NCBI GenBank assembly: GCA_016699385.1
Contig: CP064974.1
Span: 131,242-195,241, forward strand
Origin: Candidatus Moraniibacteriota bacterium
Lineage (GTDB): Bacteria > Patescibacteriota > Minisyncoccia > Moranbacterales > UBA1568
DNA length: 64,000 bases
Direction: 5' to 3'
Part shown: positions 1,300-63,844 of the stretch, piece after piece
How the letters are laid out: every line of letters starts with the position of its first letter
Position numbering within the stretch: position 1 is the first letter of the stretch
Notes under the pieces: generated by a model
Database searches by the model: none
The model's input: only the letters and a program-made list of their open reading frames with translations
Told to the model about the DNA's origin: nothing
Translations under genes and position numbers: made by a program

Positions 1300-4520
<3,221 letters not shown>

Positions 4521-4611
4521 CTTCATGTTCCGGTTGCCGATCAGACCGTTTTTCGAAACGGCTGACGAACTGTTTCCCACTCTCTTGTTTGTATACTGAT
4601 TGAACCCAGAG

Positions 4612-27669: not shown

Positions 27670-28106
27670 GGTCATCAGTACGAGCATTTACATTGCTCGA
27701 AGTATTGCTCTCCGTTGCAGCACTCGCCGTTATTGCTGGAATTTCCTTGCCGATATATCAGTCATTTCAGGTGCGGAACGATTTAGATATCGCTGCGACG
27801 ACGGTGGCGCAGAGTTGTCGCCGAGCTACGGTACTTGCACAGGCATCTGATGGCGACACGAATTGGGGTGTTCATATTCAACCAGGAAGTATCGTGTTGT
27901 TTCGTGGAACAAGCTATGTTGCACGAAACGCGACGTTTGATGAAATTTTCGCCATGCCAACGAGTATTGTGTCGTCGGGTATGTCTGACGTTGTTTTTGC
28001 AAAATTCACGGGCATGCCAACGACAACTGGTACAACGACACTTACTTCTTCTACCAATGAAACTCGAACAATCACCATCAATGCCAAAGGAATGGTTAAC
28101 TTCTGA
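27666..28106 (+). CDS. Pseudopilin / minor pilin (prepilin-type N-terminal methylation domain)
   Basis: N-terminus RAFTLLEVLLSVAALAVIAGISLP matches the class III signal and hydrophobic alpha1 helix. Confidence 0.7.
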   Translation: MRSSVRAFTLLEVLLSVAALAVIAGISLPIYQSFQVRNDLDIAATTVAQSCRRATVLAQASDGDTNWGVHIQPGSIVLFRGTSYVARNATFDEIFAMPTSIVSSGMSDVVFAKFTGMPTTTGTTTLTSSTNETRTITINAKGMVNF

Positions 28107-39925: not shown

Positions 39926-40828
39926 ATGATTATCGGACACGAAGCAATTCGAGATCGACTTCGACGTGCGACTGAGAAACAGTGCGTGGCACAGACGTAC
40001 ATATTTGTTGGTCCGGAGAGCGTCGGGAAGTTGGCAGTTGCAGTTGAACTTGCTGGAGAACTGCTTGGAAGTGCGTCGATTTCTGATTGTGCAGTTATTC
40101 GACCAGAGCGAATTGAAGAAAAAGGAAAAGTGAAGGAGCTTCCTATAAGTGTCAAAATGATTCGCGAGGCGACACATACGCTCGGACTTTCGGGGCGTGT
40201 CGGGACGGGGAATGTACTCATTGTGGATGATGCGCACAAGATGTCGGAGGGGGCGCAAAATGCGTTTTTGAAAACACTCGAAGAACCATTTCCCGGGGCG
40301 ACAATTATTTTGGTGACGTATAATGAGGGAGGAATGCTTTCGACGATTCTCTCGCGGTGTGAGCGAGTTTCATTTGCACTTGTTACTGGGGATGTTCTCG
40401 CAGAATCATTTTCCGATGTTCCGGAGACGATTCGCCAACTAGGTCGTCCCGGGCTATGCGCGTCTTTCCGAGAGAATCCGGAAATGTTTGCGGACTCTCT
40501 GCGGAGATTGGACATGCTTCGGGGATTTGCTTTGCTTTCACTGAGTGATCGTGTGATGCTGGCAGACGCTTGTACAAACGATATTCCTGGTGCGGAACGC
40601 CTGCTTGCTTGGTGGATGAGCGCATTGAATCGTGAGATGCTGACTGTTCCTCATACCTATGAACGGCGGGCATTGCTCGAGCGACTTCATGCTGTTGCAG
40701 CGACACTTCGTGATTTGCGACGGTTTCCCGGGAGTGCTCGATTGATATTGGAACAACTTTTTTTCTTTCGAAAAAGCGTCTCGCCACTTCTGATGCAACG
40801 CATGACAAAGAGTCAGTTTTTTGGATAG
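39926..40828 (+). CDS. holB: DNA polymerase III delta-prime subunit-like clamp-loader AAA+ protein
   Basis: MIIGHEAIRDRL...QTYIFVGPESVGKLAVAVELAGELL with a degenerate Walker A, plus an SRC-like segment ILSRCERVSF. Confidence 0.65.
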   Translation: MIIGHEAIRDRLRRATEKQCVAQTYIFVGPESVGKLAVAVELAGELLGSASISDCAVIRPERIEEKGKVKELPISVKMIREATHTLGLSGRVGTGNVLIVDDAHKMSEGAQNAFLKTLEEPFPGATIILVTYNEGGMLSTILSRCERVSFALVTGDVLAESFSDVPETIRQLGRPGLCASFRENPEMFADSLRRLDMLRGFALLSLSDRVMLADACTNDIPGAERLLAWWMSALNREMLTVPHTYERRALLERLHAVAATLRDLRRFPGSARLILEQLFFFRKSVSPLLMQRMTKSQFFG

Positions 40829-41819
40829 AGAGCAGAGTATTATGGGATTTTTCAAAACAAAAAAAACACGTGGATCTCAGGCAATGATTTTACGACCGAA
40901 ACGGAGTCGACTGTTTCGTGGTGCGAATCGTGAACAGCAGAGAACTGTTTCTCAGCATCATCAACGATCCTGGTCATTGTGGACTGTCGGGTATATATTT
41001 CTTTGGGCATCATTTACCGGATTGGTGATTTTCGTATTGTTCTTCTCGTCACTTTTGCGTCTCAAGCAAAAAGACATAGCCCCGATGGAACATGTCTCAA
41101 GAGGTGATGTGGCAACAGTGATTGATAGCGTGCTTTCGGGGAGCTCTTTTGGTATTATTCCGAATGATACGATGCCTGTTGCTTTCATTCGAAAGTATAT
41201 TATGGAGCGGAAACTCCTTAATGCCTTTCCAGTGTTTCGGAGTGTGACGGTTTCATTTCTTTTCCCTTCGACGATTGTCTTGAAAAGTGAGGAGCGAAAT
41301 ACGGCATTCGTACTCTGTTCTGGCGGACCCTGTTTCTTCGTTGACGAAGAGGGTGTCGCTTTTGATGCCGCTCCTGCTCCGCATGATCAGGGTGTGACTG
41401 GAATGCTTACTGTTGTTGATACGTCAGCAAAGCCAGTTTCGCAGAAAGACATGCTTCTTTCTGAAGATTTCTTGCGGAGCTTCCCATCTTTGCAACAAAA
41501 GCTCCGCGATGAACTCGGTCTAGAAATATTTTCGGTAGCTGAAACACCATCGCGTTTCTCTGATGAGTTGTGGCTTCGGAGTACTGATGGATGGGAGCTT
41601 CGCATGAGTGCGACGGTTCCACTCGAAAAATCGATACGTGCCCTTCGCCTTCTCTTTGCAAAGACATTGCTGGAAAACAATCGAAAAAATCTCGACTACA
41701 TCGACCTTCGCACGGAGAATCGCATTTTCTATCTCTTGAAGGGTGATGAACCGAAAGAAGGTATATCTCCTCTAGACACAGAGAGTGTTTCCGAAAACAA
41801 GACAAAGAAGAAGAAATAA
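40821..41819 (+). CDS. FtsQ/DivIB-like cell-division protein (single TM plus POTRA/beta domain)
   Basis: Basic cytoplasmic N-terminus, one TM (WTVGYIFLWASFTGLVIFVLFF), an extracytoplasmic domain, and a C-terminal ...NLDYIDLRTENRIFY... resembling the FtsQ beta-domain motif. Confidence 0.45.
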   Translation: MDREQSIMGFFKTKKTRGSQAMILRPKRSRLFRGANREQQRTVSQHHQRSWSLWTVGYIFLWASFTGLVIFVLFFSSLLRLKQKDIAPMEHVSRGDVATVIDSVLSGSSFGIIPNDTMPVAFIRKYIMERKLLNAFPVFRSVTVSFLFPSTIVLKSEERNTAFVLCSGGPCFFVDEEGVAFDAAPAPHDQGVTGMLTVVDTSAKPVSQKDMLLSEDFLRSFPSLQQKLRDELGLEIFSVAETPSRFSDELWLRSTDGWELRMSATVPLEKSIRALRLLFAKTLLENNRKNLDYIDLRTENRIFYLLKGDEPKEGISPLDTESVSENKTKKKK

Positions 41820-45628: not shown

Positions 45629-45731
45629 AGTGTTGGTGTTCTATTTGTGTCTTGACTTTTCGCTCGCGCGTCTCGTCGGCGCATTCAAATGATGGTATAA
45701 TTATACCACGAATTATTTTTTTGTTTTCAGT

Positions 45732-48700
45732 ATGTCCATGGAGCAGGAAACTGATATATCCATCGAAAAAAAGGCACGAGGGAAAAAGGGAACTTCCGGA
45801 ACGAACCCGGCAGTTGCTAGTGTGAATGTTTCTAGAAAAGGTGATGTTCCTGTGACTCTTTCGACTTCTGAAAATGAAACACTCAAATACTCCAAGTCAG
45901 TTAATGGTGATATGCAAAAAAAAGAAATTGATCGTGTATTGAAAAACAATGTGCAAATGGAACAAGTGATAGAACTCGAAAATGGAATACAGGATGCTCG
46001 ACGACAGGCAGAAAAAGAAGCTTTGGAAAAGCTTCTTCCGAAGTTGAAAGATTTGTTCCCGAATGATTGCAAACGCTTAGTTCGCAGTGGTAAAGATAAA
46101 ACCGTAGTTGAGTCTGCAATGCCAGTCTCTCAGGATGATCTTATAGAGAAATTTTTAAAAAAACACTCGAGTGAAGTATGTAAAAACCTTTTGAAAGGAA
46201 AATTAGGAAATATAGCAAAGATAATCTTTACTTTCTTCAAAAGTAGTGACTTTACACAATTCCTTGGACTTAAAACTGATAAGGAGAAAGAAATGGAGAA
46301 ACACCGCGTGAAAAAGCTGCTTAAAGAACAAGGTTTAAACGAATGGTCAAATGAAACGGAACCCCAGAAAGCAGGCTCTGGTACTAGGAGAATAGTTGAT
46401 GATTTGGAAGAGATGCGTAAGACGAATGGAGATGATGCGGATATGTCTTCGAATGATGGCGATGCTCAAGGTAAGGATATTGCAGAAGGAGATCAAGAGG
46501 TAAAGAGTGATACGAATGGCGGATACTTTGGGGCGCCAGATTATAAGGAAGCAATTGATGATGTGACGCAAGAAGAACAAGAGAGTATAGAAAAACTCAA
46601 GCAGATTAGGGGTGTAAAAAATTTCGAGGAACTTTTGATGCTTTTGGATGATCCGGACTTCCCGGGTATTCAGGGGTCGAAACAATTTTATTCTGGTGAT
46701 GATTTGAGAAGAATTGTCGCGGGAGCTCGAGAAATGGGGGTGACGAATTTTGTGACGAGTTCTCAAGGGTTGCGTGATACAGTGGAGCGTCTGTTGCATC
46801 AAGAAAAAGAGGGGAAGATTGAAGCTATGAAAGAAGATGGTATTGTGGAAGGTTTTGGAATGGTTGGTGGTGATTCGGGAGTTGAAGATTCCTCGGAAAC
46901 AGGGGATGAAAATGCTCTTGAAGATGAATATTTCCCTCAAGGAGAAGTGTCCACACAAGAACTGCATAGTCGTGCTCAGGAATTGAAGAGTGAAGCTGAT
47001 GCAGCTCGGGACGATTATTTGAAATTAAAGCATCGAAATGAGTCGAAATGGTTGGCGGTCAAGAGAGCACTGTTTGCATCACGCTCCAAGGAACCGCCAA
47101 AGAACCTCGTGGACGAGTTGGCGGTCTTGGAAAGCAACTGGAAATATAAATTGACGCTTTATAAAAATGCTGTTGTTGAACTAGCGAAACGCGAATCGGA
47201 GGATCGAAAACTGGATGGAAAAGGAAAGGGCTTACTCATGGCGGAGGCGATTCGCGGGCTTGATTTTCAAGGATCGATTGAAAATTACAATGCCTGGAAA
47301 GATGCGGCATGGGGAAATAGGGAAGACTCCCGGTTTCTTCGCGGACTCGGTCGTGCGAAGGATTGGACGGAACAATACAGAGCGCTCGATTGGAAGAAGC
47401 GCATGGCGATTTCCGCGCTTGCTTTGGGTACAGGTGTTGCCGGGGTTGCCACGGGGTCTGCGGGATTGGTGGGTCTTGGTGTCGCGGGAAGCACGCTGAT
47501 TCGATTGTTGGGGTCGTACGGCGTTGGACGTGTTTCATATGAGTATCTGGAGGGTCGAGCGAATAGAAAAACGGTTCAGTATCACGAGGCAGCACTCTCG
47601 AATATTGAGAAGATAGAAGATATAGGATTCTTGGAGCAGAGAATGAAATCGTATGCCGATCGTACACAAGAGAATCTCGATCGAGCAATCGCAGGAAATC
47701 GGAAGCGGGTCGTGACGAGTGTTGCACTTGGCACATTGCTCTTTGCTGGTGGATCGGCATTTGCTCATCATGGAGCGATACGGGAAGTTTCGGGAAAGGT
47801 TTCAAGTGGCTTTTCAAAGCTTCTTGAGCAAATGAAAATCATTACCGGAATCGAGGATTTTCACAGTGCTCCAATTTCACTAGATGCCTCTCCTCTCGAT
47901 GTCTACAATGTCCCTCCGAGCGAACTCACCCCTTCTCAACCGAGTGTATCAGTTGATACAGGTGCTTCTCCTGCTCGTATTGCTTCAGGTGTGGGAAGTG
48001 TAGAGGTTTCCCCTTCCAGTGCGACGGAAGTCGTTCGTCAGGTGAGTCCTCCCGCATCAGAAAGTGTGAATGTTGGTGCTGGCATGAGAGAACTGGTTAT
48101 CAATCACCAAGGCGGTTCCATTGAGGAAGTAATGAACAAAGCTGGTATTGACGGGGCGGAGAGTCATCGAGCGTATCTTCGTTTTTTGGAAGAGATGAAA
48201 AAAGCTGGAAAGAATATCGCTCAGCTCGATAACGTTCTTCAAAAGAGCATGCATATAGGGGATGATGTGAGCGTGATTATAAATCCGGATGGCACAGCAA
48301 GAATTTTGCAAATCACCCGAAAGTCGGGAGAGGCGATTCTTCAGAATATCACGGCACCTGGAGCGGGAGATATTGTCCACAGCGCGAGAATTGAACTGAC
48401 TTCTCCTTCACCGCAGTCAAGTGCAGCTCCACTTTCGCGGTCAATTGCGCCGCCAACCCCTTCTCCTGACGTCGCTGTATCGAGTCCTCCTATTCCTGCC
48501 GAATCTATCCCTCAAGTGCCTCTCGAGTCGCTTGATATTTCTGCTCAGGGAAGTGAATATTTGAAGAATGTGGGTACAATAGTGAAAGAGAGGTTGACAT
48601 TTCTTCCTCTCTCTCAGGGACAAAAGGATCTTATAGAAAGTATTTTTGGCGCCAGAGTTCCGGTTTCTGGGACTGAACCGACGCCGAGCTCTGTGCTTTT

Positions 48701-48938
48701 TGTGAAGGATTCGCTTGGGCGAGCACTTTTTCCGTCGGAAGATGTGGCACGTTGGATGCGGAATGATGTTGAATACATAAAAGAGAAAGTGAATAGAGCT
48801 GTGTACGCTGGTATTGTTCGCATCGGTGGCGAATCACTTCGCATTGGCAAAGTAATTTCACCAGGTGAAACCGTCGGAAGCTGGCTTACAAAAATGGCGA
48901 AATATATTCTTACCCATCCGCTTGAGTCGAAAAAATAA
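45732..48938 (+). CDS. Very large (1068 aa) acidic coiled-coil protein with a central pair of TM helices; no known family
   Basis: The N-terminal ~550 aa are Glu/Asp/Lys-rich with predicted coiled coils. Two Gly/Ala-rich hydrophobic helices occur at ~555-600 and ~650-680 (ALALGTGVAGVATGSAGLVGLGVAG; VALGTLLFAGGSAFA). The C-terminal ~370 aa include a Pro/Ser-rich linker. Confidence 0.6.
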   Translation: MSMEQETDISIEKKARGKKGTSGTNPAVASVNVSRKGDVPVTLSTSENETLKYSKSVNGDMQKKEIDRVLKNNVQMEQVIELENGIQDARRQAEKEALEKLLPKLKDLFPNDCKRLVRSGKDKTVVESAMPVSQDDLIEKFLKKHSSEVCKNLLKGKLGNIAKIIFTFFKSSDFTQFLGLKTDKEKEMEKHRVKKLLKEQGLNEWSNETEPQKAGSGTRRIVDDLEEMRKTNGDDADMSSNDGDAQGKDIAEGDQEVKSDTNGGYFGAPDYKEAIDDVTQEEQESIEKLKQIRGVKNFEELLMLLDDPDFPGIQGSKQFYSGDDLRRIVAGAREMGVTNFVTSSQGLRDTVERLLHQEKEGKIEAMKEDGIVEGFGMVGGDSGVEDSSETGDENALEDEYFPQGEVSTQELHSRAQELKSEADAARDDYLKLKHRNESKWLAVKRALFASRSKEPPKNLVDELAVLESNWKYKLTLYKNAVVELAKRESEDRKLDGKGKGLLMAEAIRGLDFQGSIENYNAWKDAAWGNREDSRFLRGLGRAKDWTEQYRALDWKKRMAISALALGTGVAGVATGSAGLVGLGVAGSTLIRLLGSYGVGRVSYEYLEGRANRKTVQYHEAALSNIEKIEDIGFLEQRMKSYADRTQENLDRAIAGNRKRVVTSVALGTLLFAGGSAFAHHGAIREVSGKVSSGFSKLLEQMKIITGIEDFHSAPISLDASPLDVYNVPPSELTPSQPSVSVDTGASPARIASGVGSVEVSPSSATEVVRQVSPPASESVNVGAGMRELVINHQGGSIEEVMNKAGIDGAESHRAYLRFLEEMKKAGKNIAQLDNVLQKSMHIGDDVSVIINPDGTARILQITRKSGEAILQNITAPGAGDIVHSARIELTSPSPQSSAAPLSRSIAPPTPSPDVAVSSPPIPAESIPQVPLESLDISAQGSEYLKNVGTIVKERLTFLPLSQGQKDLIESIFGARVPVSGTEPTPSSVLFVKDSLGRALFPSEDVARWMRNDVEYIKEKVNRAVYAGIVRIGGESLRIGKVISPGETVGSWLTKMAKYILTHPLESKK

Positions 48939-48967
48939 ACATAACTTCTGTCTTTAACTTTTCATCT

Positions 48968-49300
48968 ATGCCACTTTCTATTGAGCAACTTAAAGCCGAC
49001 CTTGTGAAAGAGTTTGGGTTGGAGAATTTGCCAGAAGCAAAGCAACAGGAGTTGCTTGATATGATGACGGAGACGGTGATGAAGCAGATTTTTCTCGCGC
49101 TTGGAGAAAAGATGGGTGATGAGGGTGCGGATGAATTCGATGCGTTGATGAAATCGGGAGATCAACAGAAACTGGAGGCGTTTATCAAACAGTACGTGTC
49201 GAATCCAGATGCGTTTGTAAAAGGAATTGTCACGGAGTTTCGTGATGCAGTGAAGAACGGTGGAATACCGGCAGATTCGATTTCTGGGAAGCCTGCTTGA
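48968..49300 (+). CDS. Hypothetical small acidic protein
   Basis: ORF of 110 aa with net acidic charge and no TM. Tightly spaced after the giant ORF. Confidence 0.45.
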   Translation: MPLSIEQLKADLVKEFGLENLPEAKQQELLDMMTETVMKQIFLALGEKMGDEGADEFDALMKSGDQQKLEAFIKQYVSNPDAFVKGIVTEFRDAVKNGGIPADSISGKPA

Positions 49301-49366
49301 TGTGTGTGATGAACTCTTGCATGAAAGAAAGTGATTCGTGTCTTTTTATTCTAATATCTACACGCT

Positions 49367-49882
49367 ATGTTTTCTGAAGATGGAAATGAGCACATGGACT
49401 CCAGACGCAAAAAGCCTGATGATGCGTTTGATTATCGAGGCACTCCTGAGGATAAAGCTGACTTCGAGGTGTTGGCAGCAGAGAATGCTGCGGAAAGATT
49501 ACGAAGGGAAAGGGTTGAAGAAATTCAGAAGATACAGGAGGATTTTGATATCGATACGGAAAAAATACACCAGGAGCGCATTCATATCGAAGGAAAAAAA
49601 GAGGTTGATATTCTACAAGAGAAGGTTGAGAGGTTGAAAAGAGAATATAATGCTGAAACAACCTTACGGAATAAGTATGTAGATGCCGAAAGAAACCGTG
49701 GATTTCTGAGAAAGGCATGGGAATTTTTCTTTGTTCCGCGCAATGCTTCTACTTCGGATCGACTGAATATCATTGCTTTGGATGAACGTGTTCGGCAAAG
49801 TCTCTCGGCATATCGAGCCGCTAAAAAAGAGCTTGAAGATGCGGAGTCATCAATATCGAAGGATAAAGAATCGCTATCTTGA
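49367..49882 (+). CDS. Hypothetical acidic coiled-coil protein
   Basis: ORF of 171 aa that is Glu/Lys/Arg-rich with heptad periodicity (EKVERLKREYNAETTLRNKYVDAERN). Confidence 0.45.
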   Translation: MFSEDGNEHMDSRRKKPDDAFDYRGTPEDKADFEVLAAENAAERLRRERVEEIQKIQEDFDIDTEKIHQERIHIEGKKEVDILQEKVERLKREYNAETTLRNKYVDAERNRGFLRKAWEFFFVPRNASTSDRLNIIALDERVRQSLSAYRAAKKELEDAESSISKDKESLS

Positions 49883-49957
49883 TTTATGAATACGGGTATG
49901 TGTTCAGGGTTGATGTTTCTCGGAATACAATTGAATGGTCGAGTCTAATTTCTTAGT

Positions 49958-50431
49958 GTGATGATACTTATGCCGGAAGAAAAAACTATTATCGGGGTAC
50001 CGGAGGATGTTGCAGAAAAATTGAAGTCTGATGATGTAGAAAATGTCCGAGATATTTTGGATGTTCCTGGGAGGCAATCAGAGTTGTGGGTGGACGGGAA
50101 AGCAGAGAAGCATGTGGATGCTCAAGAGAGCGCATCGGAGTATGAACGCAAGTTGAGTGAAGTGCAGGCAGCAGCATCTGCCTCGGCGCAGACAACGACC
50201 ACGAAGAATGATGATGTGAAGTTCGATGCCGATGCTATTCGTCATATGGAGGATGCTGCGGGGCGTGTACAAAAGCTGCTTGATCTTGCTCGTGTGAAGG
50301 GGGTAGCGCATGCTGTGTCGGTTGCGGAGCATATCGATGCCTATACTTTGGATATTACGCATGATCGCATTGCTGACGAGCTCTCGGATGAACTTCGTAA
50401 ACAAGGTCTGCTTGATGACGCCAATGAATGA
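49958..50431 (+). CDS. Hypothetical acidic protein
   Basis: ORF of 157 aa that is Asp/Glu-rich. Lies immediately upstream of the ATPase gene. Confidence 0.45.
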   Translation: MMILMPEEKTIIGVPEDVAEKLKSDDVENVRDILDVPGRQSELWVDGKAEKHVDAQESASEYERKLSEVQAAASASAQTTTTKNDDVKFDADAIRHMEDAAGRVQKLLDLARVKGVAHAVSVAEHIDAYTLDITHDRIADELSDELRKQGLLDDANE

Positions 50432-50451
50432 TAGATGGATGATGGGAACGA

Positions 50452-52968
50452 ATGTCTTTTATGGAAACAACTTTTGATTTCAATTTGATTCTTATTCCCC
50501 TCCTCTTTGCGATGGGGGGATTGGCGGCGCTCTCGGGAGTGTTGTTAGTTATTCGAACCCTTCTCTTTTTTCGTGCGCGCATCAACCGATCGCTCAATAT
50601 GGACTTGGAAACGATTCAGGTGTCGAAGCCGGCGGATCGGAAGGGTGAATCATTGCGTCCCGATGAGTGGAAGGAAGAGATTGGGGCTATGGAGCAACTC
50701 TTGGTGTCGCTGCAGTCTTTTCGTGGGATGAAGCACAGGTTTAATCCTCTCTCGGATATCAAAAGATTCTTCTATGGACCGCCAGCAATTGTATTTGAGG
50801 TGGCAAATCCCGAAGGTGATGAGGAGATGACATTTTTTCTTTCGGTGCCGAGGAAGTTTCGGGAAGGTATTGAGAAACAAGTGCACAGCTTTTTCCCGAA
50901 TGCCTTTGTAGAGAAGGTGAAGGACTACACTATTTTTTCTCCAAAGAGCTTTTCGTCTGTTTCGACGCTATCGCTCGCGAAGAGTCCAGCGCTCCCGATA
51001 CGGACCTATGAATCACTCGATGTTGATCCTCTCAATGAGATTTCCAATTCTCTGAGCAAGCTTTCCAAAGAAGGTGAGGGTGCAGCAGTGCAGATCATTC
51101 TTTCTCCAGCCGGTACGTCATGGCGCTTGGAGGGGCGGCGAATTGCGCATGAGATGCAACAAGGGAAACGTCTCGCGGATGTATATCACGAGTCGCCATT
51201 TTTGCACTTTCTCGGATCGGCATTTGTATCGCTCTTTCATGCAGCGACTTATACTGACAAACCAGGAGAAAAACCCGCCGATAAACCTCTTGTTCAACTG
51301 ACGCCGGAGGAGCAAGATTTGGTGAAGGCGATTGAGCGCAAGGTGTCGAAGGCTGCCTTCCATGTCAATGTGCGTCTGCTTGCAGCAGCGGCTTCACAAG
51401 AGCGCGCTGATCAAATACTTGCGACGATGGAAAATGCCTTTGCACAATTTGAATATCCGGAAGCAAATCTTTTCCGTACACAGCGTCTGCGTGATCGCTC
51501 GGCAAAGCCGGTAATTTTTGACTATATCTTCCGCTCTTTTCGTTCGGAGACAGCATTTCTCTTGGGTGTGGAAGAAGTGTCGAGTCTCTTTCATTTTCCT
51601 ATTTCAACGACCGAGACGCCGAATATCAAATGGCAAAAGGCAGGCTCGGCGCCACCACCACCAAATATTCCGAAAGAAGGGATTCTCTTGGGACACAATG
51701 ACTATCGTGGCGTGAAGACGGATATTCGTCTAGCAACATCTGATCGTCGACGTCATCTCTACTGTATTGGACAGACTGGTGTTGGAAAGTCCGTGTTTCT
51801 CCAAGAAATGGCGAAGCAGGATGTCCGTAATGGGCGAGGTTTGTGCTTCATTGATCCGCATGGTGATGCTGTGCAGGATATTTTGGCAGCTGTTCCGAAA
51901 GAGCGAGCTGAGGACATTGTGTATTTTGACCCCGCTGACACAGAGCGTCCTTTTGGGCTCAATATGCTGGAATTCTCTCGTCCCGAGGAAAAGACATTTG
52001 TTGTAAATGAAATGATTAATATCTTTGGGAAGCTCTATGATTTGAAGCAGACCGGTGGACCGATGTTTGAGCAGTATATGCGGAATGCCATGCTTCTTAT
52101 TATGGAAGACCCAGCGACTGGCTCGACGCTCATGGAAATATCGAAGGTGCTTGCTGATCCGGATTTCCGACGGATGAAGCTTGACCGATGTAAGAATCCA
52201 GTCGTCTATGATTTCTGGGTAAAAGAGGCGGAGAAGGCGGGGGGTGAGGCGTCGCTTGCCAATATGGTGCCATATATCACGTCGAAGCTCACGCCTTTCG
52301 TGGCAAATGACATGATGCGCCCTATTATTGCCCAGCAAAAGAGCACACTTGATTTCCGTACACTCATGGATGAGAAGAAAATCATCCTCCTCAATCTCTC
52401 TAAGGGCAAACTTGGGGAAATAAATAGCCATTTGCTCGGCATGGTCGTAGTGGGGAAGATTTTGATGGCGGCACTCTCGCGAGCAGATATACCCGAGGCA
52501 GATCGAAAAGACTTCTCTCTCTATATTGATGAATTTCAAAACGTCACGACGGACTCTATCGCGCAAATTCTTTCCGAGGCACGAAAGTACGGACTCAATC
52601 TCATCATAGCGCATCAGTTTATCGGGCAACTGTCAGAAGATATTTCAAAGGCGGTCTTCGGTAATGTGGGATCAATGGTTTCGTTTCGAGTTGGCCCCGA
52701 GGATGCGGAATTTCTCGAGAAACAATTTGAGCCGATTTTTTCTGCGCGCGACCTTGTGAATGTTGACAACTATCATGCTTTTGCTCGACTCCTCATTAAC
52801 AATCAGTCTACCAAGCCGTTCAATCTCTTGGTCTATCCTCCGACCTCTGGCGATGAGGAACTCGCGGGGCATCTCAAGGAGCTCTCGCGTCTGCGCTTCG
52901 GTCGCGACGCTGATGTCGTCAATCGCGAAATCATGGAGCGGACAAAGTTGGTAGGCAGTCTTTCATAG
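50452..52968 (+). CDS. Membrane-anchored FtsK/HerA-superfamily ATPase resembling type IV coupling proteins (VirD4/TraG/TraD-like)
   Basis: N-terminal hydrophobic hairpin LILIPLLFAMGGLAALSGVLLVIRTLLFF. Cytoplasmic NTPase domain with Walker A HLYCIGQTGVGKSVFLQEMA and Walker B LYIDEFQNV, plus a C-terminal conserved block NLIIAHQFIGQL as in TraG/TrwB-type ATPases. Confidence 0.65.
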   Translation: MSFMETTFDFNLILIPLLFAMGGLAALSGVLLVIRTLLFFRARINRSLNMDLETIQVSKPADRKGESLRPDEWKEEIGAMEQLLVSLQSFRGMKHRFNPLSDIKRFFYGPPAIVFEVANPEGDEEMTFFLSVPRKFREGIEKQVHSFFPNAFVEKVKDYTIFSPKSFSSVSTLSLAKSPALPIRTYESLDVDPLNEISNSLSKLSKEGEGAAVQIILSPAGTSWRLEGRRIAHEMQQGKRLADVYHESPFLHFLGSAFVSLFHAATYTDKPGEKPADKPLVQLTPEEQDLVKAIERKVSKAAFHVNVRLLAAAASQERADQILATMENAFAQFEYPEANLFRTQRLRDRSAKPVIFDYIFRSFRSETAFLLGVEEVSSLFHFPISTTETPNIKWQKAGSAPPPPNIPKEGILLGHNDYRGVKTDIRLATSDRRRHLYCIGQTGVGKSVFLQEMAKQDVRNGRGLCFIDPHGDAVQDILAAVPKERAEDIVYFDPADTERPFGLNMLEFSRPEEKTFVVNEMINIFGKLYDLKQTGGPMFEQYMRNAMLLIMEDPATGSTLMEISKVLADPDFRRMKLDRCKNPVVYDFWVKEAEKAGGEASLANMVPYITSKLTPFVANDMMRPIIAQQKSTLDFRTLMDEKKIILLNLSKGKLGEINSHLLGMVVVGKILMAALSRADIPEADRKDFSLYIDEFQNVTTDSIAQILSEARKYGLNLIIAHQFIGQLSEDISKAVFGNVGSMVSFRVGPEDAEFLEKQFEPIFSARDLVNVDNYHAFARLLINNQSTKPFNLLVYPPTSGDEELAGHLKELSRLRFGRDADVVNREIMERTKLVGSLS

Positions 52969-53016
52969 TAGATACTCCCCAATTAAAAGCTGAGAGATTT
53001 TGAGGTGGACTATGTA

Positions 53017-54501
53017 TCAGTTCGCCTTTTTCTTTGGGAGAAATGAAAGGAAAGAGGCGAAGTCCTCTTGGGTGAGTACGCCAAGGAAAGAAAGTATTGC
53101 AAGGTAGCCGATGCTGAGGATAGTGGCGGGTATGAGAAACGCGATGGAGGATGATGGGAAAAACTGTGTTGCAAAGAAAAGCAATACGCTTCCTATGAGG
53201 ATGCGGATACTCTGAGAAATATTCACGGGCGTGCGGATATACACTTGCATAAATGCAAGTGTCGCGAGGGTGATAAGTATAGAACTAATCGTCGTCGACC
53301 AGGCGGACCCAATGATGCCAAAGCGCGGAACAAAGAGAAAGTTAAGTGTTGCATTGAGTATGGTGCCGGCAATCGCCATCCACATGGCGAGCCGGGTATG
53401 TCCGAGTCCCATGAGTCCGGAGGAGACGATATAGAAGACGGTGAGGAATGAGAGTCCGCCAACGAGAATACGGAAGGCGTCTATTGCTCCCGTATATTTC
53501 GTGCCAAAGAAAAGGGTGAGGGTCGGCTCGGCATAGGCAAAGAGGAGGATGAAGAGTGGGATGAGTATGATGCTCGCATAGCGGAGTGATTGCGACATGA
53601 GGCGAGACACTTTTTCTGGATTGCCATCGCTTTTGAGTTTGGCGAGTGCAGGGAGGAGAACGATAGAGAGCGCGTAGAAGAGGTAGTAGGGGAGTCGCCC
53701 AAGGGTGAGTGCGGCATTGTAGAGACCGGTTTGCACGTCGTCATGGAGGAGCGCCTTCACGAGGTAGAGATCGATAGAGATGAAAATTTCGTAGAAAAGC
53801 AGAAAGAGCGTAATGGGCCAGGCGGAGGAGAGGAGGAGTCGCCAGGGAAATGTTTGCTCCGGTGCATCGTTTCCAATTTCTTTGAATGAGTCGGATGACT
53901 TTTTGTCGAGATAGAGTCCGAGGAGAAAGGTGCAGAGCGGGACGAGTATATACCCAGCAAGAGCGCCATATATGCCAAAGGCAAAAACAAGGGAGACAAT
54001 GAGTATGATGCGGAGTAGTGCGCGCGTCATTTTGAGAGTGGCCTGGGTGCGGAAGCGGTGAATGCCGGTGAAGTAGTAGAAATAGAATGATGAGGCGGCG
54101 AATGCGGGAATGATGAGCGCTGAAAATGCAAAGAGTGGCGTGAGTGAGGAATCTCCCAAGAGGCGCGCAATGAGTGGCGAGATGAGGAAGAAGACAATAG
54201 TGACGCCTCCAATAAGAAAAAACTGGAGTCGCGCGCCTGTTTGTTTGATGATGCCAATCATGCGGGGCGACTTTTCGAAGTACTCACTCAAATAGCGCGA
54301 CATGGCAGTTGGGATGCCGTTTCCGATGAGGATGATGACGGTGGTCGTGAGAGTAACAACGAGGGCGTATCGCCCGTAGTCCGCGGGTCCCAAAATACGC
54401 CCGGCGACCGCGTGAATCACATAGCCAGAAATATTAAAGAGCACTTCAGCAATCGTGAGCCAGATGAGTGATTTCGAGAGAGAGGTTGACATAGATATCA
54501 T
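53017..54501 (-). CDS. Polysaccharide/oligosaccharide flippase (MOP superfamily: Wzx/MurJ-like)
   Basis: At least 12 TM helices. Length and hydrophobicity pattern fit MOP-family flippases. No soluble domain. Confidence 0.55.
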   Translation of the reverse strand: MISMSTSLSKSLIWLTIAEVLFNISGYVIHAVAGRILGPADYGRYALVVTLTTTVIILIGNGIPTAMSRYLSEYFEKSPRMIGIIKQTGARLQFFLIGGVTIVFFLISPLIARLLGDSSLTPLFAFSALIIPAFAASSFYFYYFTGIHRFRTQATLKMTRALLRIILIVSLVFAFGIYGALAGYILVPLCTFLLGLYLDKKSSDSFKEIGNDAPEQTFPWRLLLSSAWPITLFLLFYEIFISIDLYLVKALLHDDVQTGLYNAALTLGRLPYYLFYALSIVLLPALAKLKSDGNPEKVSRLMSQSLRYASIILIPLFILLFAYAEPTLTLFFGTKYTGAIDAFRILVGGLSFLTVFYIVSSGLMGLGHTRLAMWMAIAGTILNATLNFLFVPRFGIIGSAWSTTISSILITLATLAFMQVYIRTPVNISQSIRILIGSVLLFFATQFFPSSSIAFLIPATILSIGYLAILSFLGVLTQEDFASFLSFLPKKKAN

Positions 54502-57166: not shown

Positions 57167-58144
57167 TTATTGTTGTATGTTAAACAGCTTTTTGAATCCA
57201 GCTGTATTGACGAAATAATTTTGCTTATTTCGAGTGAGATTCGCCTTTATATTCCTTAACTGATTCGAGAGTTTTCCATTCTTTGAATGTTTTTCGTTAG
57301 TAAATAAATTAAAATACATTCCATCCAAAAATGAAACATAATGAATTTTCACATTGTTTTCACTGAAGCCAATGAGAGATATTATCTCGTTTATTTGTTT
57401 ATCCTGACCACCACCACCTTCTTTCATATGTTTGTGCTCCACTATGAAAATATCATCCCCGTCTTTTATAAGGAAATCTGGCATCTTTTGATCTTTCTTT
57501 TTGCTCCATAGGAATCTTATTCCATGATGCTGGAGAAATCTTTTAAAAAGTTTTTTCCCTTTTTTATCTGCTTCAATATACTTTTTGCTACCCTGAGAAG
57601 TGAACTCTTCGAGTGTTTCATCATCTGATTTTTTGTAGCCAGCCGTGCTTAGAATTCTTGATACCTTACGAATGCCAAGACCCCCACTTTCCTTGTGAGC
57701 TTTTGCATCTTTACTCGCTTGTAATGTGACTGGAGTGTAGCCATATGACGAATAAAGCGAGTGTCTTAACTCTATGTATTTTTCAATAATACTTTTTAGA
57801 ATGTCATACTGTTCTTCTGTGTCCATCTTCTTGAAAAGGCTGTAAGAAACATCTGCAACTGGCCAAAAAGAGACAAACTCGGAATAATTTATACTTTTGC
57901 ATTGTATGATAGCCGATATTTTTTCGAGCGCTTTTTCAGCTATAAAGTCTTCCTGGTGTTTTCTTGCAAAACTATATGTCGAGATACTTTCGATTAGATC
58001 TAAATTTTTTCTCATCGCATCTGTTGGGATCTTTGCATCTTCTGATATGATAAGACTCCCATTTTTCAGATAGAATTCGTCCACGATTGGCTCTGGATGA
58101 ACGAGCGAAAATTCAAAAATCTCCCTATTGCCGATGTAACCCAT
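57167..58144 (-). CDS. Candidate type II restriction endonuclease (PD-(D/E)XK motif)
   Basis: ...MPDFLIKDGDDIFIVEHKHMKEGG... gives a D...EXK catalytic-type arrangement. AT-rich codon usage. Lies directly downstream of a DNA methyltransferase gene. Confidence 0.45.
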   Translation of the reverse strand: MGYIGNREIFEFSLVHPEPIVDEFYLKNGSLIISEDAKIPTDAMRKNLDLIESISTYSFARKHQEDFIAEKALEKISAIIQCKSINYSEFVSFWPVADVSYSLFKKMDTEEQYDILKSIIEKYIELRHSLYSSYGYTPVTLQASKDAKAHKESGGLGIRKVSRILSTAGYKKSDDETLEEFTSQGSKKYIEADKKGKKLFKRFLQHHGIRFLWSKKKDQKMPDFLIKDGDDIFIVEHKHMKEGGGGQDKQINEIISLIGFSENNVKIHYVSFLDGMYFNLFTNEKHSKNGKLSNQLRNIKANLTRNKQNYFVNTAGFKKLFNIQQ

Positions 58145-58152
58145 ATATTTAT

Positions 58153-59160
58153 TTAAAACAGTCTTGATTTTAAATTTGGACAGGCAATCTCATAAGCATC
58201 TTCTAAGAATGCTCTTGCTGTGAGATAATCAAGACGTCTCCTTCTTTCCCCATTTTTTTTGTTCCCTTTGAACGGGGATAGAAGGACATCGCGAGTTTTT
58301 CTTCTAAAGTCGAGAAGTGCAATATTACTGTGCTCGATTATTTTTTCAACGATAGCGTTATTCTCCACGCCGACTTCAATGACGGTTATCAATCTTGAAC
58401 TATATTTTATGTCGGCTAAATCGTAGTCTATTTCTTCAGGCTTCATAAAGGAGATTGGCTTTTGTGGATTTGTTGTATCAACAGCTCTTAGTGCAATCCG
58501 ACCCTTTGGGGCGTTAAATTTTATGGGAATATTCTTGTGAGGTGTTCGTCGAAATTTTTCGAAATACCCAAGACTACCAATGTATTCATCGTTCTTATAG
58601 ACAGAGATGTGCTCATGCGATTTGTAAGTATTGTCAAAACAGATGATACAAATGGGATTCTCTGTATCATCAAACAAGGGATCTTCGATTATTGTTATAC
58701 TTACCAGTCTGTTCTTTGGGACATTTGAGTTGATAAATGTTTCTGGCACAATCATGATACCAAAATCGTTCCCCATGCATTTCTCAATAGCTAGTTGATA
58801 GATATCGTCGTAACTACAAATATCAAAATATTTGTGTACGTTTTCATATATTTTTTTTCTCTTAGCGCTATAATTCGTTAGATACGGTGGATTGGTAATA
58901 ATTAACGAATTCTTTATCTTTGGGATGTGGAGAAGACTATCATTCACTTCCCACCCCAGACCTTTATCTATATCAAAACCCTTGGTATTGCTAAAGCCAA
59001 TTTGCTGGGCCATCCGCAAAAGGTCTCCAGCTCCAGCGAATGGATCGAATGCAATAGTTGTTCCTGTAGATTTAATAAACTCCAAAATGTGGGCTTTAAT
59101 CCAGGAGTTGTTCTTTGTAAAAAATTGTCCTAGACTGCGCTTTTTGATGCCCGTGCTCAT
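58153..59160 (-). CDS. N6-adenine DNA methyltransferase (gamma-class motif order)
   Basis: N-terminal LGQFFTK (motif X-like), FDPFAGAGDLL (motif I, AdoMet binding), and TNPPYL (motif IV, NPPY catalytic). Confidence 0.75.
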   Translation of the reverse strand: MSTGIKKRSLGQFFTKNNSWIKAHILEFIKSTGTTIAFDPFAGAGDLLRMAQQIGFSNTKGFDIDKGLGWEVNDSLLHIPKIKNSLIITNPPYLTNYSAKRKKIYENVHKYFDICSYDDIYQLAIEKCMGNDFGIMIVPETFINSNVPKNRLVSITIIEDPLFDDTENPICIICFDNTYKSHEHISVYKNDEYIGSLGYFEKFRRTPHKNIPIKFNAPKGRIALRAVDTTNPQKPISFMKPEEIDYDLADIKYSSRLITVIEVGVENNAIVEKIIEHSNIALLDFRRKTRDVLLSPFKGNKKNGERRRRLDYLTARAFLEDAYEIACPNLKSRLF

Positions 59161-60728: not shown

Positions 60729-62738
60729 TTATTTTTCTGCTCGCTTATACACCGCAATATCGTCCGACAGATAGAGAAGGGACATGTCTTTGGCTTTGGT
60801 GAACTGGAGGCTGTCGACGTGGGGATTGACGACAACCGTGTCGACGCCGGTTCCCTTGAAACAATCTTGTCCTTTGGGTGTATTGGGGGCAGAGATCATG
60901 AGGAGGGTACATTGTTCACGCGTTTTGGTCTCGTCAGTGTAGCGTTGGAAGAGTCCGCGAGAGAGGGGGTAGGAGTAGTCTCTCATGAAGAAGAGTTTCA
61001 TCCACGAGTCGGCGATGATGTAATTGTGATCCTTGAGTACCCATTCGTCCGAGCGGGTATTTTTTGCAAGCCATGAGGAGACGGTATAGGTTTGCACGGC
61101 TTCACGCACAGTGCTTTTTGTCGAGATTGTCCCGGCATTGTCAAAGAACCCGCCAACAATAACAGCGACGAGGAAGAGCCCAAATGCATAGCGGAGGAAG
61201 CGATGTTCGTCGGGAGATTTTTCTTTGAGTGTTTTCTTGCTGCTTTGCCCTTGCATGAAGAGTGAGACGAAAGCGAATCCAGTAAGGAGTGCAGCCGGGA
61301 AGGTATTGTAGGTGCCAATGCGATTGGAGGGGATGTCGATGAAGAGGAGATTTGGGAAAAGAGTCATGACGATGAGACCGGCGCTCCAGGCAATCATCAC
61401 GATGCTTCCGAGCTGCTTGCGCCTGGGAGAGAGGAGAAGAATCGTGATGCCGATAATCTCGAGTCCAAATCGGGATCCGCCGACACTTTGGGCGAGTTGG
61501 TCAAAAGAAAGTCCTTCGCGCGTTGCTTTTGAGGGCGTGCCGACAGCGGTGTCGATGGCACTCGCGTGGAGATAGGTCGGCGTGTAGACAAATGCCGTAA
61601 ATGCAAGAAGAGACAAAGCAATGAGTATCGGGAAGGGCGAGCGGAAAAGAGCGAGCCACTCTCGGAGTTCGGAGAATCGTGTTGTATCGGAATTTTTCGA
61701 GAAGAAAGTTGAGAGGAAGAATATTGCGAGGATGAAAAGTGCAATAAAGAGAAAGACGAATGTCGAGAGGTGATGAGTGAAGGCAAGTGTGCCCATGAAG
61801 AGTATGGCGAGTCCGAGGAATATGGAGTTCTTCTCTCGGAGCGCGCGGAAGAAGCAAAGTATGATAATCGGAATGAGGAGATTTCCAAAGAGATTGCCGA
61901 CGACGCCACCGCTCACATATTTTGCTTCAGGAGAAGAGAGTGCCCAGAGTGGTCCCACGGAGAGGAGGACGGCGATCATGCCACGTCGGGCGAGGAGTTT
62001 TGATGGGAGTGTATCCTCGAAGAGGCGGTAGCTAAGAAGGGAAAGTGCGAGGATGGTGAGAATGTTGACGAGGAGAAGTATGAGTGACGGGAAAGCCGAA
62101 ACAAAGTCGATGTGAGCGACGAGCGCGGTTGCTGCAAAGGGGAGATGTTCGCCTACAATAAAGTCATCAATCGGTTGTGGATCGGTGAGGGTGTCTCCGG
62201 CACTTTCGGTTCCCTCGAAGTCGATGTTAACTTTTTCATAGGAAGGAACAGCGCCAGTAAGGGCTATTTTCTTTGCCCAAAACATATGATGTCCGAGGTC
62301 GGTCGACGTAGGGAGAATCGTATCCCAGAGATAGAGAGATTTGATGAAAATTGTAAGCACAATAAGTCCAATGAAGAGCCAGCCTTCTTTGTGTGAGAAT
62401 GCTATTCCTGAAGTTGATTGATTTTTTGTTGGGGAATTTTTTTCTTTCGCTTTGCCTTTTCGGAATCTTGGAATGAGGAATGCAAGTGGAAGAAGTATGA
62501 AGATACTTTCGAGTCCGATAATTGAAAGTGCGGTTATCGGGATGTGTATGCGCGAGAGAAGGAGCAAGCCAAAGTCGAGCAAAGAAAGACTCATCGCGAA
62601 TGAAAGAAGTGTGTATTCAAACAGGGAAAGTGTGGGGAGTCGCTTTCGGAGAAATGCGGATATGATGAGTGTTCCGGGAACGAAAAAGAGTCCGGTGATT
62701 GTGAGGAGGAAGGCGAATTGACTGGAGAATGTGCTCAT
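60729..62738 (-). CDS. Large polytopic membrane protein (at least 14 TM) with a C-terminal soluble domain; possible GT-C-type glycosyltransferase/polymerase
   Basis: Start chosen at MSTFSSQFAFLL, where ATG overlaps the TGA of the upstream GT4 gene (ATGA). Hydrophobicity pattern only; no diagnostic motif identified. Confidence 0.5.
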   Translation of the reverse strand: MSTFSSQFAFLLTITGLFFVPGTLIISAFLRKRLPTLSLFEYTLLSFAMSLSLLDFGLLLLSRIHIPITALSIIGLESIFILLPLAFLIPRFRKGKAKEKNSPTKNQSTSGIAFSHKEGWLFIGLIVLTIFIKSLYLWDTILPTSTDLGHHMFWAKKIALTGAVPSYEKVNIDFEGTESAGDTLTDPQPIDDFIVGEHLPFAATALVAHIDFVSAFPSLILLLVNILTILALSLLSYRLFEDTLPSKLLARRGMIAVLLSVGPLWALSSPEAKYVSGGVVGNLFGNLLIPIIILCFFRALREKNSIFLGLAILFMGTLAFTHHLSTFVFLFIALFILAIFFLSTFFSKNSDTTRFSELREWLALFRSPFPILIALSLLAFTAFVYTPTYLHASAIDTAVGTPSKATREGLSFDQLAQSVGGSRFGLEIIGITILLLSPRRKQLGSIVMIAWSAGLIVMTLFPNLLFIDIPSNRIGTYNTFPAALLTGFAFVSLFMQGQSSKKTLKEKSPDEHRFLRYAFGLFLVAVIVGGFFDNAGTISTKSTVREAVQTYTVSSWLAKNTRSDEWVLKDHNYIIADSWMKLFFMRDYSYPLSRGLFQRYTDETKTREQCTLLMISAPNTPKGQDCFKGTGVDTVVVNPHVDSLQFTKAKDMSLLYLSDDIAVYKRAEK

Positions 62739-63844
62739 AGGTGGAGTTCGCGTTCGCCGGTTATTTGCACAATCGTGTCTTTGATAATGCCGGCATAGCA
62801 TGTGGCAATCGTTTTCCAATTGAAGTGCTTGACAGTGTAGTGTCTGGCTCGTTCACCAAAGATCTCTCGTTCTTCTTTGTTGACGATGAAGTGCTCGATT
62901 TTTTCCTTCCAATCTGTGGCGTCTTCCGGTTCGGCGAGGATACCGTTTTGATGATCCGTGAAGGCATCCTTGAGTCCTTCGAGACGCGAGACAATGACGG
63001 GAATGCCGCAGGATGCTGCTTCTATCGGGGTGATGCCAAAGCCTTCGACATCGCCTGGTATGTGGATATTCGGTTGGACGAATATATCACAGGTATTCAT
63101 GAGGATGTCTCGTGCGCGGTCGCTCACATACCCGAGGAGTTTCACGCGCTCGAATGTTTTGGTTTCTTCGATGGCATTTCGGATATTGTCGCGGTCGGCA
63201 CCGTCTCCGGCGACGATATAGACGGTTTCTCTTGGGAGTGTTGGGAAGACATTTCGGATAAACCAGGCGACACCTTTGCGACGAGCGAGTCTCCCTGATG
63301 TAAGGATGACCGTTGCATCTTTGCGCACATCACCGATGATGCCTTCAAGGTCCTTGCGGGTGAAGTTTGGGTTGTAGTGTTTTTGCGGGTCGATACCGTT
63401 GGGGACGAATTCGAATTTTTCCTTGGCTATTCCATGATGGACGCCGAGCATGATGGTTTCATTGCCGACAGCGATGAGTCGGTCGAGCTTCGGGATGAAG
63501 ATGCGAACCCAGAGTGCCTGATAGATAAAGAGTGGATAGGTGATGTCGAGTCCGTGAATAACGGAGAGTACGGCTTTTTTTGGAAAGCAAATCTTTACCG
63601 CCCAGCCAACTACGGAGAGAACGCCGTCGCCAAGGAGCACGGCGTCATATTTTCGCGACAGAAAAAGCGCTCGGCAGAGGGCATAGGGCAAGAAAATCGG
63701 CAGGAATTTCTTGCCGAATCGATTGGCTATCGTGGTAATCTCAGCGTGTTCTTTGAGCCAGAGAGAGAGCGCGGCATTTTGATTTTCGATGCCACCAACA
63801 ATCGGTGGATACGCACGAGAAATAAAGAGAATACGAAGAGGCAT
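62735..63844 (-). CDS. Glycosyltransferase family 4 (GT-B)
   Basis: ...IFVQPNIHIPGDVEGFGITPIEAASCGIPVIVSRLEGLKDAF... EX7E-type motif. Start chosen at MPLRILFISRAYPPIVGG; the ORF-track start is 63871. Confidence 0.75.
   Translation of the reverse strand: MPLRILFISRAYPPIVGGIENQNAALSLWLKEHAEITTIANRFGKKFLPIFLPYALCRALFLSRKYDAVLLGDGVLSVVGWAVKICFPKKAVLSVIHGLDITYPLFIYQALWVRIFIPKLDRLIAVGNETIMLGVHHGIAKEKFEFVPNGIDPQKHYNPNFTRKDLEGIIGDVRKDATVILTSGRLARRKGVAWFIRNVFPTLPRETVYIVAGDGADRDNIRNAIEETKTFERVKLLGYVSDRARDILMNTCDIFVQPNIHIPGDVEGFGITPIEAASCGIPVIVSRLEGLKDAFTDHQNGILAEPEDATDWKEKIEHFIVNKEEREIFGERARHYTVKHFNWKTIATCYAGIIKDTIVQITGERELHL

Follow-up and report, generated by a model that had tools for sequence, protein, structure and literature searches.

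Patescibacteria (the candidate phyla radiation, CPR), which live on other cells, account for much of bacterial diversity. According to a survey of 3,035 of their genomes (Quinonero-Coronel et al., 2025; PMC12102498), VirB4 occurs in 2,417, and 5,713 VirD4-type coupling proteins of type IV secretion systems (T4SS) occur in 2,918 (about 96%, typically about two per genome), just 148 of these type IV coupling proteins (T4CPs) lying near virB4; exaptation of T4CPs, the same survey states, 'cannot be ruled out'. Genetic work on a T4SS of this phylum is confined to S. epibionticum, whose essential T4SS cluster was reported to encode neither a coupling protein nor a relaxase that could be recognised (Wang et al., 2023; PMC10633639). 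Coupling ATPases with dedicated partners are described for the Legionella Dot/Icm complex (DotL, DotM, DotN, IcmS, IcmW, LvgA) and for Cagbeta-CagZ of H. pylori, in both cases from diderm hosts with complete T4SS gene sets. Here we describe five genes (g1 to g5) in a 64,000-nucleotide stretch of a Candidatus Moranbacteria (Patescibacteria/CPR) genome (assembly GCA_016699385.1, contig CP064974.1, positions 131,242 to 195,241; the window), the last of which encodes an orphan ATPase of the coupling type.

Gene order and profile matches indicate that four of the five genes (g1, g2, g4 and g5) constitute a co-conserved cassette, and the statements on gene identity and conservation made below are, taken alone, very probably correct. 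Our tentative view is that the locus represents, in Moranbacteria, a chromosomal cassette that occurs across the Patescibacteria, in which an A-type T4CP is accompanied by dedicated partners. Such a partner set appears to be new, since a literature search found no paper describing partners of patescibacterial T4CPs, and none on DUF8128 or DUF5663. The orphan T4CPs of the survey are apparently of the same protein class as g5; its accessible text leaves their gene neighbourhood and partner genes undescribed, and the g4, DUF5663 and giant partners as well as the split into A and B paralogs come from the present analysis. The genes and their principal features are as follows, in window coordinates.

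45732-48938, plus strand: g1, giant membrane protein of 1068 residues (open reading frame (ORF), hydropathy, iterated hidden Markov model (HMM) of the core)
47397-47765, plus strand: membrane region of g1, with a Gly/Ala-rich block (residues ~556-597), a basic loop (598-659) and a helix (660-678), from hydropathy
48968-49300, plus strand: g2, acidic protein of 110 residues, probably of the DUF5663 family (PF18908, positional orthologues)
49367-49882, plus strand: g3, highly charged protein of 171 residues, lineage-specific (ORF)
49958-50431, plus strand: g4, acidic protein of 153-157 residues, likely start ATG at 49970
about 50225-50428, plus strand: conserved C-terminal domain of g4, ~65 residues, the N-terminal part being variable
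50452-52968, plus strand: g5, T4CP-family ATPase of 838 residues (ORF, Pfam, NCBIfam, AlphaFold2), with a membrane helix (residues 11-48), a DUF8128 domain (~50-400) and a P-loop motor with an all-alpha bundle insert (~410-800)
51769-51792, plus strand: Walker A motif GQTGVGKS of g5, residues 440-447 (read from the sequence)
52528-52545, plus strand: Walker B and next motif DEFQNV of g5, residues 693-698 (read from the sequence)

The coupling-type ATPase g5

The original prediction, made from the DNA letters alone, had described g5 as a membrane-anchored VirD4/TraG-like ATPase bearing the motifs GQTGVGKS, DEFQNV and AHQFIGQL. All three motifs are present (the last at residues 720-727), and in 124 homologues of 31-98% identity the residues G440, G443, G445 and K446 of the Walker A motif, as well as D693, E694, F695 and Q696, are invariant. 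Two T4CP-specific Pfam models are matched above their cut-offs, PF10412 (TrwB_AAD_bind) with 26.9 bits (cut-off 20.5) and PF12696 (TraG-D_C) with 22.8 bits (cut-off 22), and the best NCBIfam matches are conjugative TraD models (TraD, E 2e-13). The top NCBIfam score, however, is 49.7 bits to TIGR03743 (SXT_TraD) against a cut-off of 366, and g5 falls far below the curated cut-off of every named equivalog (TraD, TraG, CD1115 and others).

The AlphaFold2 model of g5 (pLDDT 88.9, pTM 0.76) was built from the 124-sequence alignment, which includes divergent homologues from two profile searches; a shallower alignment of 12 sequences gave an unusable model of pLDDT 49. The better model comprises a RecA-like motor with an inserted helical bundle (residues ~511-626) and an alpha/beta domain (residues ~50-400) that corresponds to DUF8128, an assignment that rests on the homologues, PF26449 being precomputed in front of the T4CP domain for all 120 best matches of g5, one of them 98% identical, and in every neighbourhood table. 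At the N-terminus, residues 6-44 are hydrophobic by hydropathy and the model contains a single long helix (residues 11-48), in place of the transmembrane hairpin that had been predicted. TrwB has two transmembrane helices. In summary, g5 combines a P-loop NTPase motor of the VirD4/VirB4/HerA/FtsK clade, in which both Walker motifs are intact, an all-alpha insert with matches to T4CP-specific models, and an N-terminal membrane anchor predicted as one helix; what its locus lacks is the relaxase gene and the VirB4-containing T4SS with which a T4CP would be encoded.

Features that would place g5 in one of three other families were not found: neither the FtsK_SpoIIIE motor signature with the gamma KOPS-reading domain of FtsK/SpoIIIE, nor the tandem FtsK-like domains, FHA N-terminus and WXG100 partners of type VII secretion ATPases (EssC/EccC), nor the HAS-barrel and HerA motor with a NurA, Sir2 or DUF4297 partner that mark HerA helicases and anti-phage HerA systems. 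The match to DUF87 (20.1 bits) is below the cut-off of 23.2. An origin in a defence system was considered and rejected, since PADLOC returned just weak HerA and mad8 matches to the motor of g5 and none to partners, and no nuclease partner is encoded nearby. Judged by its motifs and model matches, g5 is a membrane-anchored coupling ATPase of the VirD4/TraG/TraD type with intact catalytic residues and conjugative ancestry, in agreement with the family originally predicted, and within the T4CP superfamily it stands outside every named subfamily.

Conservation of the cassette in Moranbacteria

The five ORFs lie on the plus strand at the positions predicted, separated by gaps of 20-87 bp. Their conservation was assessed in 83 Moranbacteria loci anchored on the ATPase (60-98% ATPase identity; 80 species-representative genomes and 3 contig look-ups). 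A g4 gene is found directly upstream of the ATPase in 80 of the 83, and a DUF5663 (g2) gene upstream of g4 and directly downstream of a giant in 68. The giant preceding DUF5663 is a plus-strand ORF of 700-1580 residues, and the iterated HMM of the g1 core matches 58 of 65 such upstream giants. The reciprocal search, anchored on DUF5663 in independent metagenome contigs, gave the same arrangement: of 51 loci that extend far enough downstream, 50 have g4 and the ATPase, and of 46 that extend far enough upstream, 45 have the giant core. By this neighbourhood test, the module proposed in the original prediction is a conserved cassette rather than a chance adjacency, with g1, g2, g4 and g5 as its members and g3 excluded.

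The g3 gene falls within a ~590-bp insertion relative to the locus L004, whose ATPase is 94% identical. No g3 homologue was found in the 83 ATPase-anchored loci, and the single one among 173 loci (L094, E 8e-38) occupies the identical slot. From this distribution, g3 is best described as a lineage-specific passenger in a variable slot, outside the conserved cassette. The slot, between DUF5663 and g4, spans 49301-49957 in the window, and 7046-9529 in L001, 7348-8529 in L085, 5982-8358 in L087 and 2790-4580 in L088; its contents elsewhere include a Big_13-like protein of 827 residues, proteins of 393 and 716 residues with two transmembrane segments, in which the pair of hydrophobic regions is spaced as in g1, and an acidic protein of 596 residues.

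The partner proteins

The predicted architecture of g1 held in part. Its acidic stretch (residues 130-400, isoelectric point (pI) 4.6) and its Gly/Ala-rich hydrophobic segments (residues 562-590 and 660-678 in a hydropathy scan) are present, the block at ~556-597 being compatible with one long or two short helices, while the C-terminal third (~390 residues), which had been taken for a domain, is Pro/Ser/Thr/Ala-rich and quickly varying. The N-terminal ~555 residues are basic and then acidic, and contain no segment resembling a signal peptide; the charge distribution suggests a topology with the N-terminus inside and the C-terminus outside. The conserved core extends over residues 393-932 (~540 HMM positions), with the membrane region as its best-conserved part, and the N- and C-terminal ends are kept only in the three closest relatives. 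Pfam scans found no domain in any of 29 giants, and a LysM-like reading of the conserved 'SIE...IkpG' stretch was dropped on that account.

All three small proteins had been described as strongly acidic and without homology. This applies to g2 (pI 4.47) and g4 (pI 4.57) as regards charge, g3 (pI 5.24) being better described as highly charged, and g2 can probably be assigned to DUF5663: it scores 20.5 bits against PF18908, just under the cut-off of 23.7, over 80 of 84 profile positions; PF18908 is precomputed in its positional orthologues in L001, L085, L088 and L089, and weakly in L087; and an HMM of g2 retrieves the orthologues in L085 and L087-L089 at E ~1e-9 to 1e-10. For g4, no relatives were found in Pfam or among PDB sequences, and its invariant residues are A107, K110, H114, A119, Y125, D128, H131, D132 and L142.

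The cassette in other patescibacterial lineages

Beyond Moranbacteria, the gene order is recognisable in L085 and L087 (50-52% ATPase identity), where a large protein, DUF5663, a variable transmembrane protein, a g4-like protein and the ATPase follow one another. In both loci the cassette is followed (L085, 13657-17579; L087, 13583-17433) by a gene for a ~1040-residue Amidase_2/SpoIID cell-wall hydrolase and by two PF18895 T4SS pilin genes, the sole physical link seen between the cassette and T4SS-type genes. With these pilins excepted, no relaxase, VirB4, VirB6 or pilin gene was found within 9-10 kb in the annotated neighbourhoods. A lineage with 44% ATPase identity has just the g4-like gene and the ATPase left, adjoining an SNase gene.

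A more distant CPR clade, which includes a Berkelbacteria metagenome-assembled genome (MAG), carries two DUF8128 paralogs in tandem (L088, 4658-12087; L089, 4636-12423; L090, 5837-11925). Paralog A is 41% identical to g5 and is preceded by a giant ORF, by DUF5663 and by an acidic protein, whereas paralog B is 34% identical and follows a HARE-HTH/sigma70_r4 gene, with or instead of a small OB/SH3-like protein. Since DUF5663 accompanies the A-type T4CP even in this clade, the association between the two is ancient. The paralogs are separated by a sigma70_r4/HARE-HTH gene in two of the three loci, one of which also has a GIY-YIG gene, and in two loci a protein of 168-175 residues with the conserved beta-rich motif 'NYxSKSKLxxGDxLKLTIxxDGSFxFKQI' is encoded directly before, or close upstream of, paralog B.

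The g4 family is detectable across lineages of 44-98% ATPase identity. The small proteins before the ATPase in the Berkelbacteria-type loci and in L086 were not detected by the g4 HMM, and these acidic or OB/SH3-like proteins may be analogues of g4 rather than homologues. No significant match was obtained by HMM and hhalign between g1 and the giants or two-transmembrane proteins of other CPR lineages; the hhalign run took the first row as master, which perhaps lowered its sensitivity.

The recurrence of SNase, GIY-YIG, HARE-HTH/sigma70_r4 and gyrB/gyrA genes near the ATPase in several lineages raises the alternative of a motor that handles DNA: a relaxase-independent pump for double- or single-stranded DNA, with g1, g2 and g4 as membrane tether and regulators, acting either in chromosome segregation and division, like FtsK, or in the uptake or export of DNA, by which nucleotides would be scavenged and genes exchanged. 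We regard this as quite improbable. It would suit the membership of g5 in the FtsK/HerA/VirD4 clade of DNA translocases, its all-alpha domain (called 'DNA-binding' in TrwB), its weak NCBIfam matches to the archaeal DNA-import ATPases CedB and CedD, the FtsQ-like gene upstream in the window, L002 and L085, and the FtsA-like gene downstream in L002; in class ABY1, moreover, T4SS loci co-localise with comF, recG and radA, according to the survey (PMC12102498). However, the neighbouring DNA genes vary by lineage and may be adjacent by chance, such genes being plentiful in genomes of ~1 Mb. S. epibionticum relies on ComEC for competence, the T4CP homologue of that organism is non-essential in transposon sequencing (as cited in PMC12102498), which would be unexpected for a sole segregation motor, and support specific to this alternative is lacking.

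Relatives on plasmids and in phages

The g5 family comprises 6,856 clusters at 50% identity (E <= 1e-30), and the best 150 matches are mostly full-length. It extends past the CPR: full-length homologues (24-30% identity, up to 90% of the protein) were found in 364 plasmid records, with Streptomyces, Bacillus, haloarchaea and Sulfolobus as the main hosts. In Shouchella clausii (NZ_CP012476) the homologue adjoins a 'replication-relaxation' protein, a VirB4-like ATPase and annotated conjugal transfer proteins, and in Embleya (NZ_CP108778) a 'replication-relaxation' protein, a VirB4-like ATPase, PrgI and NlpC/P60 genes; from this gene content, both copies are real coupling proteins of monoderm conjugation clusters. 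The T4CPs of monoderm conjugative plasmids, annotated as 'DUF87 domain-containing' or 'conjugative DNA transfer family' proteins, share the architecture of g5 (N-terminal anchor, DUF8128-like domain, P-loop motor with all-alpha insertion), have like Pfam matches and are 24-30% identical to it over 76-80% of the protein. In contrast to these plasmid genes, which adjoin a relaxase-like gene and a VirB4-like ATPase (and, depending on the plasmid, PrgI or a cell-wall hydrolase), g5 is chromosomal and stands in a housekeeping context, where g4, DUF5663 and a giant membrane protein take the place of those neighbours.

Full-length relatives are also encoded by tailed Bacillus and Geobacillus phages (G gp156, JL, TP-84, SP-10 and SPO1-like phages), as 21-24% identical proteins with the two-domain fold of g5 (Foldseek E 1e-48 to gp156; TM score 0.65 to the phage JL protein), and PHROG 5156, whose function in phages is without annotation, matches g5 over its full length (E 7e-83). 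Beside the ATPase gene of TP-84, none of DUF5663, g4 or the giant is annotated; the gene sits among small early genes and adjoins one for a putative membrane protein. The phage records are JN638751.1 (91003-93159), KY565347.3 (30542-32806, locus L091), AB605730.1 and OQ921336.1.

Because the nearest relatives outside the CPR reside on plasmids and in phages, the locus might be thought a decayed integrated conjugative or mobile element, or a prophage, with the partners as unrelated cargo. This is very improbable, and we reject it on synteny and on the lack of integrase and relaxase: the cassette occupies the same housekeeping context across many species-representative Moranbacteria genomes at 60-98% ATPase identity, its catalytic residues are invariant, no integrase, relaxase or repeats were found, and the GC content at the locus is like that of its flanks. 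The published phylogeny of the patescibacterial T4SS points to ancient vertical inheritance (PMC12102498).

Proposed function

Tentatively, we favour a mechanism in which a coupling complex would supply substrates to a T4SS encoded at a remote site, or work alongside it. The four proteins g1, g2, g4 and g5 would belong to one membrane-anchored complex, in which a ring of the ATPase is anchored in the membrane beside g1, and g4, whose conserved C-terminal domain would be helical, and g2 serve in the cytoplasm as adaptors or regulators, as the small acidic adaptors of coupling complexes that translocate effectors, such as DotL-IcmS/IcmW/LvgA and Cagbeta-CagZ, would suggest; the likeness is one of analogy only, the adaptors of those systems having no sequence similarity to g1, g2 or g4. 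ATP hydrolysis would drive the recruitment of substrates and their hand-over to an envelope conduit, and since no relaxase is present the substrate would more likely be protein than DNA. The conduit would most simply be the relaxase-less and T4CP-less VirB4/TrsD/PrgI/pilin T4SS found elsewhere in the genomes, with g1 as an envelope-spanning scaffold whose N-terminal part would be large and cytoplasmic, whose conserved core would sit in the membrane, and whose Pro/Ser/Thr-rich C-terminal part evolves fast and is probably extracellular. The motor itself descends from the coupling proteins of conjugation systems in monoderms (MPF-FATA type) and is no longer linked to relaxase and VirB4.

This mechanism is favoured by the pilins and hydrolase of L085 and L087, by the T4SS of S. 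epibionticum without its own coupling protein, and by a related Moranbacteria assembly that holds one of our loci (L003), for which Table S3 of the survey lists a PrgI-TrsD-VirB4 cluster elsewhere in the genome and two unlinked T4CPs (PMC12102498). The latter also bears on how the absence of T4SS genes from the neighbourhood is to be read. That no such gene lies nearby was correctly predicted: VirB4, VirB6, relaxase and T4SS pilins are missing among the window ORFs scanned against Pfam. As a sign of an unconventional system, however, this absence is weakened, because separation from virB4 is the rule in the survey data (148 of 5,713 near it) and the usual partners are, at least in part, encoded elsewhere in the L003 assembly, an outcome that the original prediction itself had named as counting against it; the lack of a nearby T4SS therefore does not show an independent system.

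Several observations weigh against a link to a remote T4SS. The survey's counts of genomes with T4CPs (2,918) and with VirB4 (2,417) make it seem that at least some T4CPs work without a T4SS, although the incompleteness of MAGs could contribute to the difference. The T4CP homologue of S. epibionticum is dispensable in transposon sequencing, where the T4SS genes are essential (as cited in PMC12102498). No similarity of g1, g2 or g4 to known adaptors, VirB6, VirB8 or VirB10 was detectable; outside Moranbacteria the giant partner is kept, by the comparisons above, in position and composition only; the DNA-related neighbours in several lineages would fit a DNA substrate; and the link between the cassette and a VirB4 cluster, physical or functional, is one that we infer.

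The main rival is a stand-alone translocase, in which the T4CP ring would need no VirB4 and, with g1 and the small partners, would make up a self-sufficient envelope machine specific to the CPR, for export or import of protein or DNA or for surface display, with g1 as a conduit through membrane and cell wall or as exported cargo. We consider this somewhat unlikely, and its more definite form, a CPR-only machine in which the ring would dock onto an envelope-spanning giant that evolves fast, together with two small acidic subunits, unlikely; the same grade applies to the further proposal that such a machine moves protein or DNA across the monoderm envelope, or powers a surface structure, at the contact with the host cell. 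The tight retention of the cassette as a unit, never beside virB4 in about 90 ATPase-anchored loci, argues for independence, as do the surplus of about 500 genomes with a T4CP over those with VirB4 and the dispensable T4CP just mentioned. The transmembrane core, Pro/Ser/Thr-rich linker and fast-evolving distal domain of g1 are what would be expected of a surface-exposed element, and the ATPase architecture recurs in tailed Bacillus phages, among which TP-84 was checked for nearby T4SS genes. On the other hand, no channel-forming partner can be recognised, g1, for which no homologue outside Moranbacteria was detectable, having just 2-3 hydrophobic helices; two lineages have the cassette beside T4SS pilins and a cell-wall hydrolase; the apparent lack of VirB4 may stem from incomplete MAGs; and we know of no T4CP that moves substrates across an envelope without a partner channel.

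In either case, with g4, DUF5663 and a large membrane protein as the fixed associates of one T4CP paralog, what was an 'orphan ATPase' becomes a defined candidate complex, and DUF5663 and DUF8128 gain a first functional context. If the complex feeds a T4SS, as we favour, it would be the missing module that recruits substrates to an essential machine of host interaction; if it were to work alone, it would represent a new class of translocation system, derived from type IV secretion and no longer part of it.

Candidate expression signals

Two candidate regulatory features flank the five genes.

45693-45708, no strand assigned: perfect palindrome of 16 bp, TGGTATAATTATACCA, in the 103-bp intergenic region between g1 and a divergent PMT_2 gene
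53002-53028, plus strand: terminator-like hairpin and T-run, 34 bp past the g5 stop (pattern match only)

An extended -10 element (TGnTATAAT) can be read on both strands of the palindrome, which occurs once in the window against 0.03 matches expected by chance; of three TGnTATAAT sites in the 64 kb, two lie inside it. It is kept at the equivalent place in the closest relative (L004, 5888-5903), and may serve g1 and the divergent PMT_2 gene as a bidirectional promoter or as an operator. The element was picked out by eye and by regular expression, a sigma-70 scan having returned fewer promoter-like sites than in shuffled controls. The downstream hairpin is probably the end of the transcription unit, and a consensus scan found no comparable terminator-like site in the gaps between g1 and g5.

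Chromosomal setting

The cassette is flanked by genes for MreB, glycosyltransferases, holB, an FtsQ-like protein, PMT_2 proteins, a flippase, Tmk and RtcB, and elsewhere the window is core chromosome, with 23S and 5S rRNA, a type IV pilus locus, FtsW/RodA, two PMT_2 genes and a MurJ/Wzx-like flippase. The FtsQ-like gene (POTRA/FtsQ_DivIB_C) precedes the cassette by a few genes in the window (40821-41819), in L002 (643-1545) and in L085 (1254-2270), and the FtsA-like gene of L002 lies downstream (13977-15242), an arrangement that may reflect conserved division-gene synteny or just adjacency in a compact genome.

The pilus locus, to which the original prediction had tentatively connected the module, is real (24.5-31.5 kb; PilB, PilC-SH3 and three pilins); the connection found no support, PilB and PilC being absent within 9-10 kb in the annotated neighbourhoods of other lineages. 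Its PilC-like platform protein (T2SSF; 26230-27669) bears a C-terminal SH3_3 domain, and a 550-residue beta-propeller protein of LVIVD repeats (27835-29487) is encoded between the PilC-like gene and the pilins.

The 23S rRNA (1302-4523) measures 3222 nt against a model of 2925 nt, indicating insertions, and contains a tRNA-like Rfam match of 33.9 bits (2564-2683); the 5S match (4614-4760) is likewise long, 147 nt against 120. A gene for a TPR protein, and no 16S, precedes the 23S in the window, so that the rRNA genes look unlinked. In the glycosyltransferase block, the minus-strand ORFs at 57167-58144, 58153-59160 and 60729-62819 include two, of 325 and 696 residues, without a Pfam match, and the adjoining ORF of 335 residues has a borderline match to an Eco57I-type methylase (25.3 bits, at the cut-off).

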